Virus record (IMG/VR): IMGVR_UViG_3300028186_000155
Strand: one strand, 5' to 3'
Origin: a virus
Lineage: Duplodnaviria; Caudoviricetes
DNA length: 64,000 bases
Within the stretch, counting starts at the first letter, position 1; every line of letters begins with the position of its first letter. The translations under genes were made by a program, and so were the position numbers. Of the stretch, positions 6,036 to 61,333 are shown one piece after another. The notes under the pieces were generated by a model. That model had not been told where the DNA came from. It saw only the letters and a program-made list of their open reading frames with translations, and searched no databases.

Positions 6036-8072
6036 ATGGCGAGTAAGTTAACACGAATCCCCACGCAGATGATTTCCACCAAAGGGTCTACCCTCGGGGA
6101 TATCCTGCGTGACACTGGCGAAACTTTCGAACCCAGTCAAGAACGAAAAAACGCAACGGGCGTTCTGAAATCTGGTGAATACGATAGCCAGACCGGTACG
6201 CTGAAACTGACCAACTCTGATGATTCGGTAATTCTCCTTAACGGATTCCCGACCGCTGCAAATATCGGGGTTGGCGCCACGGGTCCAACTGGCCCACAAG
6301 GCGAAAAAGGAACAAATGGTCGTGATGGAAAAGATGGGCGCGATGGTGCACAAGGTTGCATTGGTCCAAAGGGCGATAGTGGTCCCGCTGGCCCTGCTGG
6401 TGGTTATGGTGGTATCGGCCCCCGTGGCCCTGTAGGCCCAACTGGTCCTCAAGGTCCGCAAGGTTTGCCCGGTGAAAAAGGCGATGTTGGTGCAACTGGC
6501 CCAGCAGGCCCTCAAGGCGTTTCTGGTGGTGCTGGTTCGATTGGCCCGACCGGTCCCCAAGGCGTAATCGGTTTGACCGGTGCAACTGGCCCCGAAGGCG
6601 CAAAAGGCGAAACCGGCGCCACGGGTCCAACTGGCCCGCAAGGTTTGCTTGGCCCTACAGGTCCAAACGGTTTGCAAGGTCCAGCGGGTCCAACTGGCCC
6701 GATGGGTGTTGGCGAACGCGGCCCTGCTGGTTCTGCGTCGATTTTCACCAACAGTTCGTGGCTCAGCAACGATGCACGAATTGGCCGTTATTTCTCGCTG
6801 GAATCTGGTGATAAAACGGTCGAAGTTTTCGGTTCGTTCAAATCCAGCACACCGGTACAAGTTTTCGACATTCCATTCGAATACAACGGTGCGGCGGCAC
6901 GTGCTGTTAAGGTCTATATTTCTTTCAACACGTGGAACCCAGCGGCTGCTGGTTCGACCTATACGATCACGCAAAGCGCGACAATTGACGGACAAACTTC
7001 GCATAAATTCACGTTTACTGCGAGCGCCGCAATTGCCAACCTCGATTTCAATTGGCGCGTTGCGATGTTTGATACCAGCCCAACGCCAGACGTGCGCATG
7101 TACGATACGGAACTGGACGTTGCACGTCCGGGCAACCCTGCAATCACCGCCACGCTGAAGTTCCCGGCCCTGCTGTCGGTTGATAGTGAGGAAACGGTTT
7201 TGGTTGACTGGGAAACTGTGTCGGATAATGCGATTGGTTCCGGCATTCCGGTGCCAACCACTCAGCAGCTGTTTGATTCGTGGTACAAATCGGCAGGCCC
7301 TGATTTCTTCGCACCGTCGCAAACCATTCCGTCTAGCTCTGAAGGCGCAACACTGGTCTTCGATAACGGGCGCATTGAAGTTACGCGCAACACTGCAAAC
7401 TATATCGGAATGTTTAGCCCGATTTCTTTCGAGAAATTCGAGTTGCAGGCAACCGTAAGTTCGGCAGACGCAGACGACGACGCAATTGGTTTGGTGGTGG
7501 CGCATGTACGTCAAAACGGGCAAAACCACATGCTGCTGGCCCTGCGAAATCAGGGCGGTTTCGGTGGATTGTCCACCGCTTCACGCAAAAACTTCATGCT
7601 GGTTTATGTGCGTGATAACACCACGGTCAAAGAACTGGGCGCCGTTGACATTGGCGTAACCGAAAACAAATGGAGTGGCAAAACCAGCGTCATGAAAGTG
7701 GTGCGTGACGGTGATTCTGTGCAGTGCTTCGCCTCGCCGTTCAACAGCGCCACTCTGGACGCTACGCCTTTGTCGGTGAATTTGGCATCTGATCCAGATT
7801 TGGCAATGTTCCGCGATAGCTGCCGTTTCGGTTGGTTCGCTGCCTCGCAAGCTGGTTCCGTGTGGCAAAACATTTCGTTCAATTTCGGCACCGCCGATTA
7901 CGTGAGTGCATCTGGTACGCTGGAATTCGCACCGGGCGAAAAAGAAAAAGAAATTCCAATCACAATCTACGGAACGTCCACGCCTAATCCGCCTCAGAAA
8001 ACTGTTTCGGTGCGGCTGTCGAACGCCCGTAACGCCAACATCACGGTTGCAACAGGTGTCGGCACATTCTGA
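6036..8072 (+). CDS. Collagen-like fibre protein, paralog 3, with a C-terminal split Calx-beta domain and an inserted TSP-C/L-type lectin-like domain
   Basis: [10 protein letters not shown]-term; about 50 GXY triplets; [24 protein letters not shown] Calx-beta signature; [13 protein letters not shown] motif. Confidence 0.85.
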
Positions 8073-28650: not shown

Positions 28651-28997
28651 TGGATCAATTCCCGCTCGGTGGTCTTAATCGAATCTTTGCAGATTGCGAA
28701 ATGCGCCATATTCAACACAGCCTGCACCTTCGAAGCTTGTTCCCCCAGCACGCCGGGTGCAGCGGGGCTGGATACCTTGAACTTGCCGTCGTCCAGATAC
28801 ATGCGCACGCTGGCCAGAATTTCGTGGTCTTCTTTGCGCACAATGATGATACCGACGAATTTCTGATCCTTGCCGTCTTTATCCTGAATCGATCCACGGT
28901 TGAACTGGCCAGCACACTCGACCGGGAAAGACTGGTCAGCCAGCTTGATGATCTTTTCCAGAATTTCCTGATAACGCTCTTCGTTAGGATGTATCAT
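28647..28997 (-). CDS. Hypothetical protein
   Basis: ATGA overlap; SD GAGG. Confidence 0.6.
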   Translation of the reverse strand: MIHPNEERYQEILEKIIKLADQSFPVECAGQFNRGSIQDKDGKDQKFVGIIIVRKEDHEILASVRMYLDDGKFKVSSPAAPGVLGEQASKVQAVLNMAHFAICKDSIKTTERELIQ

Positions 28998-29323
28998 TGT
29001 ACCCTCATTATCAGTCGTTTGATTGTCTGCGCGTGGCACCGTTTGGGCCAGCAATGACAGCGCAGCAACAGATTGATTCCTTGCCTATGCATTTTGCGAT
29101 ATTTCTGCACCCGGCTCCAATACTTGCCTTTCTTACGCATTTGCTCTTCGGCCCATGCGTCGTACAGGTCACAGCTTTTTGTGCGTGATCCGGTTTCGCT
29201 GATCGGAAATTTGTTGCCGAAAATAGTTTGCCGATCAACCCTAACATCAAACCAGCCGTCGCGGGGGCCGTCACTAACCTTGCCGATCATGACAAGGCCA
29301 GTGCTTGGAAATAACCCGGCCAT
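28994..29323 (-). CDS. DUF4326-like protein
   Basis: DR.TIFGNKF...Y...LRCHCWPKRCHA motif. Confidence 0.7.
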   Translation of the reverse strand: MAGLFPSTGLVMIGKVSDGPRDGWFDVRVDRQTIFGNKFPISETGSRTKSCDLYDAWAEEQMRKKGKYWSRVQKYRKMHRQGINLLLRCHCWPKRCHAQTIKRLIMRVQ

Positions 29324-32521: not shown

Positions 32522-33043
32522 TTATGCAGCTTTCTTGATTTTCTTCGGTTTGATCTTGGCAGGTTTCAGCGCCTTGATCTTTGGCTTGTCTTTCTTCGGC
32601 AACTTTTTGATTTCGTCCAGCAGCTTGTGGTGCTCGCGGCTCAGTTTGTCGCGGGCTTCCGGTAGGCTGAACCACTTGCGTTTCCGCATGTGTTTTTCTT
32701 GCCAGTCATCGAGTGCCGTATGGAAATCCATCGCGTACATGACGACGTTCTGTTTCATCCCGTCTTTCTTGTACTCAAATTTACCAATTTTCTTGGTAAC
32801 GGTTCCGGTGACTCCCGCCTCTTCGAAGCATTCTTTTGCCGCGTTTTCACGGGCATTCAAATGCTTCTCCTGCCCGCCTTTGGTGAAGCCCCACCACGCG
32901 CCTTTCTTCAGCTTTTTCACCAGCAAAACTTGGCGAATGCCGTCTTTGTCGCGGTACGGAATACAACCCGATTGTTCGCGGACTTTTTCCTTCTTTTTGG
33001 CCGACTTCGCGGTGGCCAATTGGAGTTCAACCTGCATTTCCAT
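32522..33043 (-). CDS. Nudix hydrolase (DIPP/Ap6A-like) with Lys-rich tails
   Basis: QSGCIPYR...VLLV...WGFTKGG.E......NAAKECFEEAG Nudix box. Confidence 0.85.
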   Translation of the reverse strand: MEMQVELQLATAKSAKKKEKVREQSGCIPYRDKDGIRQVLLVKKLKKGAWWGFTKGGQEKHLNARENAAKECFEEAGVTGTVTKKIGKFEYKKDGMKQNVVMYAMDFHTALDDWQEKHMRKRKWFSLPEARDKLSREHHKLLDEIKKLPKKDKPKIKALKPAKIKPKKIKKAA

Positions 33044-33087
33044 ACAGCCCCTTGTTAGTTAATGGTCGCGACCTTAAAGATCGCTCC

Positions 33088-33124
33088 CTATTAAATTACT
33101 GCCTACAAGGTATGTTTACAGTTT
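33088..33124 (-). promoter_or_regulatory. Tandem AAACTGTAAAC (33114-33124) and GTAATTTAATAG (33088-33099) motifs, followed by a leader hairpin
   Basis: Both recurrent motifs lie upstream of the Nudix gene; GCGATCT-TTA-AGGTCGC hairpin follows. Confidence 0.6.
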
Positions 33125-35647: not shown

Positions 35648-35955
35648 TCTGCCACCTCGAATTGTTCCACCGGCTGATTTTCAAGCATACAGGTGGCGCG
35701 GGGTTTCATGTCGTCAACGCCCGGCACCAAACCGATGTAAACCATGTCACGATCAGCGCAAATTTTCTGTGCCTTCAGCGTGCGTTCAAACTGGCCCTTG
35801 CGGTATTCTTGACGCTCCGCCACATAGCGTTGGGCTGCTGCAATTCGGTCGGCGCGTTTTTGGTCACGATCTACCATGCTTTGATATTCTTTTTCAGCGC
35901 CCGAATCACAACCAACCAGAACCAGTGCGGCCATCACGGCCATCAGAATTTTCAT
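35644..35955 (-). CDS. Lipoprotein, paralog 1
   Basis: MKILMAVMAALVLVG-CD lipobox. Confidence 0.75.
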   Translation of the reverse strand: MKILMAVMAALVLVGCDSGAEKEYQSMVDRDQKRADRIAAAQRYVAERQEYRKGQFERTLKAQKICADRDMVYIGLVPGVDDMKPRATCMLENQPVEQFEVAE

Positions 35956-36004
35956 TGTACCTAAATCCTTGAAGGTGCCCACACCACGCAGGCACCTGTT
36001 TATC

Positions 36005-44057: not shown

Positions 44058-44075
44058 TTAGGCTTTCCTTGTACC

Positions 44076-49585: not shown

Positions 49586-49637
49586 TTTTCATTGTACCTT
49601 TGGAGTGGGGCACCACAAGGGCACCCCAAACGATTAA

Positions 49638-50401: not shown

Positions 50402-51289
50402 TTATTGTGCGCAATCATCTTGATCATCATCGTCGCATTCTTCGAGGTCGTAGCCGTAGCCAGCCTCTGCGAAATAATCCTTGCTGATTTCGTCTTGTTC
50501 GGTCAGTCCGTTGAGGTGATCAACGAACAGTTTGGTCCAGTTTTCGAACTTCACACCCGGATAGGTTTCGTACAGCTTTTGGGCCGCAACTGGCGGAATG
50601 AAATCGACGCCTTTTTCACGATTGCCTACCGTCACTCCGTCTTTCAGACGCAGACGCCACGCGATAGCCAGATGCAGACGGCCTACGTTGTCGCTATTGT
50701 CGAAAATCAGGCCTTCGAAATGCAGGGTTGCCAAATCCGCCAGATCATCCAGCGTGGCAGTCAGCCGTTCTTTCGCCGTGCCTTCTGCCCGGTAGGCGCT
50801 GAATTTTTCACCGTGAACGAAGAACGTCATTTCTTCGAATGCTTCGCGCATGATGTTTTGCAGAGAAGTTTCCAGCAGGTTCGGAATACTGGTATTGCGG
50901 TGTGTTACAGGGTCGCGCAGATAACGCACGTCCACCGCGTCGAGGTGGCCGCCCGGCATGCCCGAACCTTTGCCTTGCAGATCGGATTCGCCGTTGCCTT
51001 CACGTGCACGCATGTAGGCGTTCAGTTCCGGCAGGTAATGCGGCGTACCAGCCTGCTCTACCGTGAAGTAGTTCAGCCATTGCGCGTAATCGCGGTTGCC
51101 TTTGAACGATTCGCCCCAGTGCAAAGATTCGTCAAGGTCTTCGCGCTGGCCAATGATGAACCCGCGACGAACCAAACCGGAGAATTGTTCCCAGTCCACT
51201 TTTACGAAGCCGGTTTGACCCATGCCGAGTTGCGGAATGTCACGCAGAACGGTGCGGCGAATCGCGCCAATGAATTCTGGATATTTCAT
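50402..51289 (-). CDS. Hypothetical protein
   Basis: SD AGGA; acidic tail. Confidence 0.75.
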   Translation of the reverse strand: MKYPEFIGAIRRTVLRDIPQLGMGQTGFVKVDWEQFSGLVRRGFIIGQREDLDESLHWGESFKGNRDYAQWLNYFTVEQAGTPHYLPELNAYMRAREGNGESDLQGKGSGMPGGHLDAVDVRYLRDPVTHRNTSIPNLLETSLQNIMREAFEEMTFFVHGEKFSAYRAEGTAKERLTATLDDLADLATLHFEGLIFDNSDNVGRLHLAIAWRLRLKDGVTVGNREKGVDFIPPVAAQKLYETYPGVKFENWTKLFVDHLNGLTEQDEISKDYFAEAGYGYDLEECDDDDQDDCAQ

Positions 51290-51296
51290 GTTGGTT

Positions 51297-51353
51297 CCTA
51301 GATACAGGGCGGCCCCCTTTGGACCGCTCGCCTGTACCTAGTGTTTACAGTTT
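51297..51353 (-). promoter_or_regulatory. AAACTGTAAAC copy 7 (51343-51353) plus a long leader hairpin abutting the SD
   Basis: TAGGTACAGG-CGA-GCGGTCC-AAAGG-GGGCCGC-CCTGTATCTA then GGAACCAACATG. Confidence 0.65.
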
Positions 51354-59338: not shown

Positions 59339-59596
59339 CTAGTTATTAATCAACAGTGCAAAGCAAACAACGAACGCCACCATATTGAAGCGTTCGAATC
59401 GGGCAGTCCAACGGTCGGTATTGCGCCCTACAAAAAGCAGCGACACAACCGAAAGCAGGATTCCCAAGGTGCCGATAATGGCGTGCGCCATTTGGCTATT
59501 AAACGGAACGGCAATCCAGCACAGGCTCAGCAATCCAACGACGATGCCTGAATGGGGGCGCATAAGCAGTGCCCGCGTAGTTTTCATTGTACCCAT
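59339..59596 (-). CDS. Small 3-TM membrane protein
   Basis: Three hydrophobic segments; lies downstream of the structured RNA. Confidence 0.65.
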   Translation of the reverse strand: MGTMKTTRALLMRPHSGIVVGLLSLCWIAVPFNSQMAHAIIGTLGILLSVVSLLFVGRNTDRWTARFERFNMVAFVVCFALLINN

Positions 59597-59604
59597 GGAA
59601 ACTT

Positions 59605-59703
59605 CCCTTAATCCGTGAGGGTGTAGGTAACAGGCAGCAAATGCCCAGCCACCAATCTGACAGACGGTCGCCCATCTGTCAACACTTGCCCACGGATCAA
59701 GGG
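59605..59703 (-). ncRNA. Candidate structured RNA (three-way junction), 5' leader or small RNA
   Basis: 15-bp closing stem plus 4-bp extension, 10-bp GCGA-tetraloop hairpin, third hairpin; G-U pairs work only on the - strand. Confidence 0.6.
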
Positions 59704-59765
59704 CTTAGGCCCCAATGGGAGCGGCTATAGGCCTGTGCACACGCGCACGCGTATACAGGGCAGGG

Positions 59766-60245
59766 TTAGGCCGGGTCAACCCCTGCACCGGCTTCCTTGG
59801 CGTGCTCCAGCTTGGCCGCCACCTGCGCCAGTTGAACCACGGTGTATTGCTCGGGCGACATGAGATTGGCCAACCCGGCGTCAATGGTGAACCACTCGCG
59901 CTTGCGCAATTGGAACTCTTCCCAATCGCAATAGGAAGCGAACGAAGCGCGGAAATAAATCTCGCGCTGGATCTTTGCCGGGTGATCGTCGGTTGCTTCG
60001 TAGGACAATACTTCGTCGTAAATCTTTTCACGCAGGAAAACTTCCATGCCTGCCTCTTCACGGGTTTCCTTCTGCGCGTTTTGTGCCTCGGTCAAACCTT
60101 CCTCCAAACCACCTTTGGGCAAAACCCACAGGCCGGGGAATTTCAGTGACGTGACCAGCAACACTTTATTGGTATCGTAGGAAATGACGGCAACGCCGGT
60201 AGCGGTGCGGCTATAGTTCAGGTCTTCAGATTTAACGACGTTCAT
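59766..60245 (-). CDS. Nudix hydrolase (DIPP/Ap6A-like), second copy
   Basis: VLLVTS...WVLPKGGLE......NAQKETREEAG. Confidence 0.85.
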   Translation of the reverse strand: MNVVKSEDLNYSRTATGVAVISYDTNKVLLVTSLKFPGLWVLPKGGLEEGLTEAQNAQKETREEAGMEVFLREKIYDEVLSYEATDDHPAKIQREIYFRASFASYCDWEEFQLRKREWFTIDAGLANLMSPEQYTVVQLAQVAAKLEHAKEAGAGVDPA

Positions 60246-60953
60246 TTAGCAGTCTCCAATGTAATCAGTAACGAAGGGTCCGAAATTGCGGTTGAGCGCA
60301 TCACGCAAAGGCTTCACGCAACGCACCACAAAGCCAAAATCTTTCAGGTCGAAATAAAGTTCGTAGGGCACGGGGCCTGCCATATTCCACAGCTTCACAC
60401 ACTGGTTAATCAGTGCGATGCGGAATGTGTGGTTGCCTCGCAGGTGCATGTAGCCTATGGCCGTCATGTGATTGATAGTATCGTGCACCGCCTGTTCTAC
60501 AAGCCGAATGTATTGGCGAACATGCGCAGAGTCCAACGGATTATATCCATTGTCTTTCAGGATGCTGCGAAGCCGGTCTACACTATTTCCGACGTTTTCG
60601 ATGATGGATGCAACGACCACCAAATCAAACATGGGCATAGCGTGGCCGGATTCCACGCTGGGGCAAACCACCGCACCAATCCCCGGATACATGTGAAAAA
60701 ACGACCAACCATTTCTGTCTAATTGGTCCCTCACCGCTTTCGTCAGGTAACGCGGCCTTTCTGACCAATACATCCGAAATTCATCACGCTTCCAGCCATT
60801 CGACAAATAATGCATGATGGCTCGATTGAACAGAATTTGTGAATCTGGCTGTTCTTTGATCGGCACCAAAAACCCCATACCGCGTTCGACCTTGTGGGCC
60901 AAACACTCTTCTAGGTCGAAAGAGATTTTGTACAGCGGAATAGACAAATTCAC
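60246..60953 (-). CDS. Hypothetical protein
   Basis: GTGA overlap. Confidence 0.65.
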   Translation of the reverse strand: MNLSIPLYKISFDLEECLAHKVERGMGFLVPIKEQPDSQILFNRAIMHYLSNGWKRDEFRMYWSERPRYLTKAVRDQLDRNGWSFFHMYPGIGAVVCPSVESGHAMPMFDLVVVASIIENVGNSVDRLRSILKDNGYNPLDSAHVRQYIRLVEQAVHDTINHMTAIGYMHLRGNHTFRIALINQCVKLWNMAGPVPYELYFDLKDFGFVVRCVKPLRDALNRNFGPFVTDYIGDC

Positions 60954-61333
60954 ACGGTGCCCCTTTCGTCCTGAAGTTCGGTGTAGATTTCACGTGCAAT
61001 GCGTTCGATTTGTCGCTGGCGTTTGCCACGCTTGGCAATCTTCATTTTCTCACGGCGTTTGCGCACCACACGATCATGCAGCAACATGCCTGCAACCCAA
61101 CCGGCGCCAGCACCAAACGAGGCAAATAGCGCGTAGTACGGATTGGGCAAATCACGCGTGGCACCCACAACAAAAAGCGTGACCAAAATTTCGCAAGCAT
61201 TCATCAGGGTGCCGGTGATGCCAGCCGCCGTTTTGTGGCCGCTGGAAACTGCCTTGCTCTGAAAACCACGAAGCAACGTCGTGACGAACAAAACGCACGC
61301 CATGGCCAGCACCACAAAAACGGTATGATTCAT
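60950..61333 (-). CDS. Multi-TM membrane protein
   Basis: Three hydrophobic segments; FGAGAGWVAGM. Confidence 0.7.
   Translation of the reverse strand: MNHTVFVVLAMACVLFVTTLLRGFQSKAVSSGHKTAAGITGTLMNACEILVTLFVVGATRDLPNPYYALFASFGAGAGWVAGMLLHDRVVRKRREKMKIAKRGKRQRQIERIAREIYTELQDERGTV

Follow-up and report, generated by a model that had tools for sequence, protein, structure and literature searches.

A promoter cassette enclosed by an upstream anti-SD arm ahead of a small membrane-protein gene in a Lu11/HRDY3-like Pseudomonas jumbo phage

The locus, its fold and the gene behind it

Why would a phage bury the Shine-Dalgarno (SD) sequence of a small membrane-protein gene in the closing helix of a large RNA fold? 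The window analyzed here, a stretch of 64,000 nt in all, comes from a Lu11/HRDY3-like Pseudomonas jumbo phage, and the region in question matches phages Lu11 and HRDY3. Gene order is alike in both phages: a NUDIX gene, then a gap of 150-160 nt, then a small hypothetical gene. In the window, all on the minus strand, a NUDIX hydrolase gene (59766-60245; PF00293, phrog_10313) lies upstream of the element, and a gene encoding an 85-aa protein with three predicted membrane helices, which is confined to this phage group, follows at 59339-59596. A preliminary description made from the sequence had proposed that the gap encodes a novel cis-regulatory RNA with a three-way junction.

The fold itself is as had been described: on the minus strand, both the minimum free energy and the centroid structures are exactly the proposed one. 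It consists of a 15-bp closing helix (59703-59689 pairs with 59619-59605) extended by a 4-bp inner helix, a 10-bp middle hairpin with a GCGA loop (59681-59658), and a third helix of 6 + 5 bp (59653-59626). Folding of 59600-59710 gives -58.5 kcal/mol on the minus strand (z -7.0, with none of 200 shuffles as stable) and -40.9 kcal/mol on the plus strand (z -3.75). This strand asymmetry is strong in the element's subclade and in the locus labeled L068, small in L003, L059, and L061, and near zero in L004, L060, and L066. Counting gave six G-U pairs, where about six had been reported (two in the closing helix, one in the middle hairpin, and three in the third helix); AAGGG, with its last base at 59605, is indeed separated by 8 nt from the AUG at 59596; and the two further hairpins upstream were located at 59757-59736 and 59722-59709. 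No tRNA was found. An Rfam search, which the preliminary description had suggested, returned no match at the gathering threshold and only chance hits (E 1-3).

The ORF downstream encodes, as had been read, a protein of 85 aa with three hydrophobic segments. It has 15 relatives among 1.8 billion representatives, and no function emerged from Pfam, PHROGs, NCBIfam, Atlas features, or viral and Atlas fold searches, in which the only matches were a likely self-family (98 aa, 33% identity) or generic helical bundles. We considered a class I holin with a dual start, for which the three segments and Met1/Met4 are present, but rejected it because the charge distribution is unfit, there is no charged tail, no basic residue lies between the Met1 and Met4 starts, and no holin family or fold matches. 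The likeness to a type I toxin that had been suggested does not hold for the protein either, which with 85 aa and three segments is unlike a short single-helix toxin. No opposite-strand promoter for an antisense RNA is conserved on inspection of the alignment. Two genes upstream of the NUDIX gene, a separate 127-aa membrane protein (60950-61333, minus strand; phrog_30210) displays a weak holin profile match (phrog_7045, E 3e-5).

Codons 1-5 of the membrane gene are nucleotide-invariant in 13/16 orthologs because they hold a second repeated motif, GGTACAATGAAA (59582-59593, minus strand, codons 2-5). This motif is present at about nine gene starts here, versus about one expected by chance, and in 11 copies, all on one strand, in HRDY3. 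It may be a translational operator. Copies of the form GG(T/G/A)ACAA(T/G)GAAA lie over or just before starts on the minus strand at 59582-59593, 49587-49598, 44064-44075, 35950-35961, and 28992-29003, with further copies at G000 4875, 11574, 18057, and 32356, all on one strand. They are candidates for either a translational operator or a third promoter class, and their AAGGA variant resembles a CsrA/RsmA site. Elsewhere in the window, 1400-2150 and 6280-6720 (plus strand) contain 9-nt periodic repeats typical of collagen-like Gly-X-Y stretches.

The promoter cassette inside the fold

A local search of 195 kb of this genome revealed two more copies of the 3' end of the element, and relatives were shown by pattern searches to have 4-8 of them per genome; about a dozen metagenome matches to the pattern were left out as probable chance. 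By its sequence, the element belongs to a family of repeated cassettes made up of a predicted sigma70-type promoter, a leader hairpin, and a CTCACG box with the SD. In each copy TTGAC is separated by 17-18 nt from an extended -10, behind which come a short GC hairpin, a linker rich in A and C, and a box CTCACG-n-TWAGGGAAGTTT, usually 5-8 nt ahead of an AUG; the order promoter-hairpin-box is the same in 32 other copies. Cassette copies were seen at G000 +16924 and -168339, and in L006, L009-L016, L019, L023, L024, L026, and L028-L037. It follows from this layout that the promoter forms the middle hairpin, that the third helix is topped by the leader hairpin, and that the box with its SD makes up the closing helix on its 3' side.

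With the membrane protein as bait, 19 orthologous loci were gathered. The -35 hexamer TTGACA (59677-59682, minus strand) is invariant in all of them, the extended -10 TG-n-CAGATT (59654-59662, minus strand) keeps C(-12), A(-11), and T(-7) throughout, and the spacer is always 17-18 nt. Some orthologs have a near-consensus -10, such as CATAAT in L068. Column identity is 1.0 for the -35, 0.97 for the box, 0.94 for the upstream arm, 0.62 for the arm flank, and 0.55 for the spacer. Thus, the putative sigma70-type promoter, which the preliminary description had set aside for its poor -10 (CAGATT), is the most deeply conserved part of the element (19/19 orthologs). From the spacing only, transcription is predicted to start at about 59647-59645, downstream of both the upstream arm and the middle hairpin. 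The latter is nothing other than the -35, the 17-nt spacer, and the extended -10 folded back, and it is strong in one subclade only (-9 to -17 kcal/mol, compared with -3 to -4 in L003 and Lu11, and 0 to -7 in paralogs). A divergent promoter using this middle palindrome was also considered and rejected, since inspection of the alignment revealed that its -10 is not conserved.

The leader hairpin, GGGCA/TGCCY (59632-59646, minus strand), is common to most cassette copies and would form the 5' end of the internal transcript; its lower extension, in which 59653-59648 pairs with 59631-59626, is possible on read-through RNA only. The box, CTCACG-n-TAAGGGAAGTTT (59599-59619, minus strand), provides the 3' arm of the closing helix and includes the SD, TAAGGG, at 59610-59605. 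In some copies (the G -168270 group, L014, L055, and L062) no start codon follows the box, and in L014 and L055 it pairs with a downstream CTTCCC. The box being kept where no start codon follows, or where it is paired downstream, indicates that it is not just an SD.

Upstream of many paralogs there is a hairpin with a U-tract, and strong terminators lie between cassette units. A shared terminator-like GC hairpin followed by TTTGTCGTTTCT precedes L006, L009, L010, L011, L019, L023, L024, L028, L033, and L036. One type of copy (G000 168180-168340, minus strand; L016, L017, L029, L035, and L037) has a highly conserved long leader and two AAGGGAAG repeats, the first of which no AUG follows; it is a candidate structured leader or small RNA. 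As for the two hairpins at the upstream end of the element, the one at 59709-59722 (minus strand) is small and not conserved in sequence. The other (59736-59757, minus strand) is a CGCG-rich palindrome that constitutes a separate repeat outside the closing helix, present upstream of many cassette copies and missing in several orthologs. Such TATACGCG-type palindromes precede many cassette promoters (59736-59757; L006, L011, L019, L021, L028, and L036) and are arranged in tandem where the Lu11 record begins (L006). The palindrome at 59736-59757 is flanked by similar GGCCTAA-CCCT sequences (59772-59762 and 59711-59700) and resembles an insertion with a duplicated target.

The upstream arm and SD sequestration

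What sets this copy apart is an anti-box/anti-SD arm (59689-59703, minus strand; conserved core CCCTTGATCCG at 59703-59693), which is an inverted copy of its own locus's box variant with an 11-nt core upstream of the -35. It matches the variable middle of that box (GATTAA, found in no paralog) rather than the family-invariant ends. In 11 orthologous loci the arm-box duplex reaches -23 to -31 kcal/mol (z -4 to -7); these loci form one clade of about seven lineages and do not represent independent events. In the same test the best of the 32 other cassette copies has -16.7 kcal/mol, and none reaches z -3. The duplex is intermediate in L066 and L021 and weak in distant loci; the arm is weak in L021, L064, L067, and L068 and lost in Lu11 and L039, although in all six the membrane gene is still first. 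By computation, 10.5-11.3 kcal/mol are needed to open the SD on read-through RNA versus 2.8 on RNA from the internal promoter, and the difference exceeds 5 kcal/mol in 9/14 orthologs versus 0/32 paralogs. Across the clade the outer 11 bp of the closing helix are kept by sequence identity; since the 3' arm is nearly invariant, the pairing could be inherited rather than selected. A two-sided change, from C-G to U-A and from G-U to G-C, is present in the distant ortholog L066.

The arm probably has to sit upstream of the -35 because the whole cassette from -35 to box must stay intact. The three-way appearance would then result from two inner hairpins that shorten the 70 nt between the arms; an anti-SD arm that embraces a promoter cassette can thus produce a striking junction. 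The arm lies 62 nt from the NUDIX stop here, and it overlaps or abuts that stop in L066, L068, and L069, where terminating ribosomes could open it. A possible second clamp at the paralog L024/L026/L045 was not counted, as it is further upstream and involves a box-like sequence on the opposite strand. In the Lu11 clade (L002:5613-5909, L064:2001-2306), which has lost the clamp, an extra leader hairpin has been gained, and the membrane protein has acquired an N-terminal extension of 13-15 aa with Met4 changed to Ser.

The nearest source of read-through into the element would be the NUDIX mRNA. No U-tract terminator was found after the NUDIX gene at this locus, and the terminator-like sites located 1.0, 1.2, and 5 kb upstream of the element are weak. 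CTGTAAA, which by the Lu11 annotation is the core of a putative middle/late promoter and is frequent before genes in this genome too, occurs on the same strand at upstream distances of 7.2, 8.7, and 12.7 kb (in L066, at 1.6 kb); it is absent from the element, including just before the arm. Another cassette copy lies 20 kb upstream. This phage group encodes a sigma70-like factor (PMC7412058). Metatranscriptome runs yielded flat contigs of up to 179 kb over the stretch, which may contain DNA and from which no starts or levels are readable; in run X8 there is a gap over the element, one of several in that run. Two other places in the window (both minus strand) are similar: at 51285-51350 a CTGTAAA motif runs directly into a long hairpin that extends at its base to the next gene's SD, and at 33040-33121 such a motif is followed by a branched fold closing over the next gene's SD region.

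A proposed switch, its rivals and known systems

We favor, as a reading with somewhat better than even prospects, promoter-bypassed translational silencing as in T4 e/soc/49/I-TevI, with a host-type promoter. In brief, (i) the host sigma70-type promoter inside the fold would start a short mRNA near 59646; (ii) this mRNA would carry only the leader hairpin and the box, leaving the SD nearly open, and the membrane protein would be made; (iii) on RNA reading through from the NUDIX gene, the upstream arm is computed to pair with the emerging box and SD; and (iv) on such long transcripts the first gene would be silent, and downstream genes with SDs of their own would still be translated. Other cassette copies would often be insulated by a terminator instead. 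The internal promoter would thereby supply the simplest release mechanism for the hidden SD. Because it is of host type, the switch is possibly early-on and late-off. Read-through from CTGTAAA-type middle/late promoters would have the protein made early and later switched off, the reverse of T4, which is the most tentative step; read-through could come late, acting as an off switch, or early, limiting dose. A more elaborate scheme strikes us as doubtful, namely that the CTCACG box is a phage RNA signal (for a regulator or for antitermination) on every early cassette, that on read-through RNA of the middle/late type the clamp hides this box together with the SD, that the membrane protein is made early only, and that a second operator covers the start codon.

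Does the RNA act instead through its shape? A riboswitch responding to a ligand or to temperature, or a small RNA that is excised and has a specific three-way junction, would fit a fold that is very stable and strand-biased in this sequence and belongs to no Rfam family. However, the covariation looked for at the suggestion of the preliminary description does not rise above shuffles: in 13 aligned orthologs the score equals theirs (200/500 as high). In the same alignment 8-27% of cells have the 4-bp inner helix paired, and neither the GNRA loop nor the junction nucleotides are conserved. Forcing the SD open in silico, at a cost of 12 kcal/mol, brings up no competing fold, and at 55 °C the SD is predicted to be still held closed by about 8 kcal/mol. 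As the bases that are conserved are explained by promoter and box, we regard such a sensor or small RNA as highly improbable. Of the novel cis-regulatory RNA first proposed, what stands is a cis helix hiding the SD of the three-helix protein gene, its outer 11 bp kept in the clade; the riboswitch, the thermometer, and the defined three-way-junction RNA are unsupported. The fold is real and clade-conserved, and it is neither a new RNA class nor a conserved three-way-junction RNA. That the arm is a neutral relic of an inverted box duplication agrees with the loss of pairing in the Lu11 clade and, again, with the lack of covariation, but sits poorly with an arm identity of 0.94 versus 0.55-0.63 in neighboring unconstrained stretches, kept although the membrane proteins are only about 42-82% identical among these phages; we give this explanation very little credence.

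The remaining alternatives assign the arm another role. Arm and box could be inverted DNA sites flanking the promoter, which a phage regulator loops or blocks, with the RNA fold as a by-product: the arm is an inverted box copy, site centers are about 85 bp apart (84-86 bp in the clade), the distance of the arm from the -35 stays at 10-11 nt, also in Lu11, which has lost the pairing, and covariation does not exceed shuffles. Yet what the arm retains of the box is the variable middle rather than the invariant ends, distant orthologs have a spacing of 90-91 bp, A-U never occurs at the G-U position (12 G-U, 1 G-C), and no other cassette copy has a second site, so that we consider this unlikely. 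To the same degree unlikely, in our view, is that the main effect of the clamp on read-through RNA is to mask the CTCACG box, which would serve as an RNA signal (an antitermination or regulator site), SD hiding being secondary. The boxes retained in copies with no start codon after them (the G -168270 group, L014, L055, and L062), the strong terminators between cassette units, and the arm's coverage of the CACGG half too (in L069, of that half only) speak for masking; no binding factor was identified, however, CsrA was not found in three records, and in most copies the box is at normal SD distance from the AUG. Finally, the long helix could be a processing or stability element, either an RNase III site or a 3' barrier of the NUDIX mRNA, uncoupling the two messages. 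A helix of 15 + 4 bp is long enough for RNase III, and every aligned ortholog has an unpaired UAA just ahead of it. But the conserved contiguous pairs number only 10-11, and a cut in the helix would destroy the SD region, which amounts to silencing again; we hold this to be quite unlikely.

Promoter-bypassed silencing invites comparison with three known systems. In type I toxin mRNAs (hok, tisB, and aapA) the SD of a small membrane protein is sequestered and the primary mRNA is translationally closed. The element likewise concerns a small membrane-protein gene with its SD hidden on a long RNA; release here, however, would be by promoter choice and not by processing, and no antisense RNA gene was seen. 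In Cluster K mycobacteriophages, SAS/ESAS is a repeated, oriented motif before start codons that contains the SD and is conserved beyond it (PMC3203893). The cassette box is similarly a repeat of fixed orientation that occurs at the starts of several genes and whose conservation extends past the SD, an analogy of function only: its sequence is unrelated, it goes together with a leader hairpin and a predicted sigma70 promoter, and an anti-box arm is present in this copy alone.

The closest parallel is with the T4 leaders that sequester ribosome-binding sites, those of e, soc, 49, I-TevI/II/III, and segB, and of Aeh1 mobE, in which transcription from a promoter located inside the 5' arm or past it yields an RNA without that arm, and short hairpins together with late (or middle) promoters block early translation of late genes (PMC3014915, PMC2988022). 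The element shares with them an SD that is computed to be paired on read-through RNA and a predicted start downstream of the 5' arm. It differs in that its internal promoter is not of the phage late/middle type but of the sigma70 type, with a full host-type -35/-10, in that about 70 nt, including two hairpins, separate its arms, and in that its polarity may be reversed. If the reading is correct, the 85-aa membrane protein would be marked as one whose dose or timing matters, the element would offer a possible way of switching an early gene off without ending its operon, as well as a small entry into gene regulation of Lu11/PaBG-like phages, and T4-style promoter-bypassed silencing would extend to an unrelated group of jumbo phages and to a host-type promoter.
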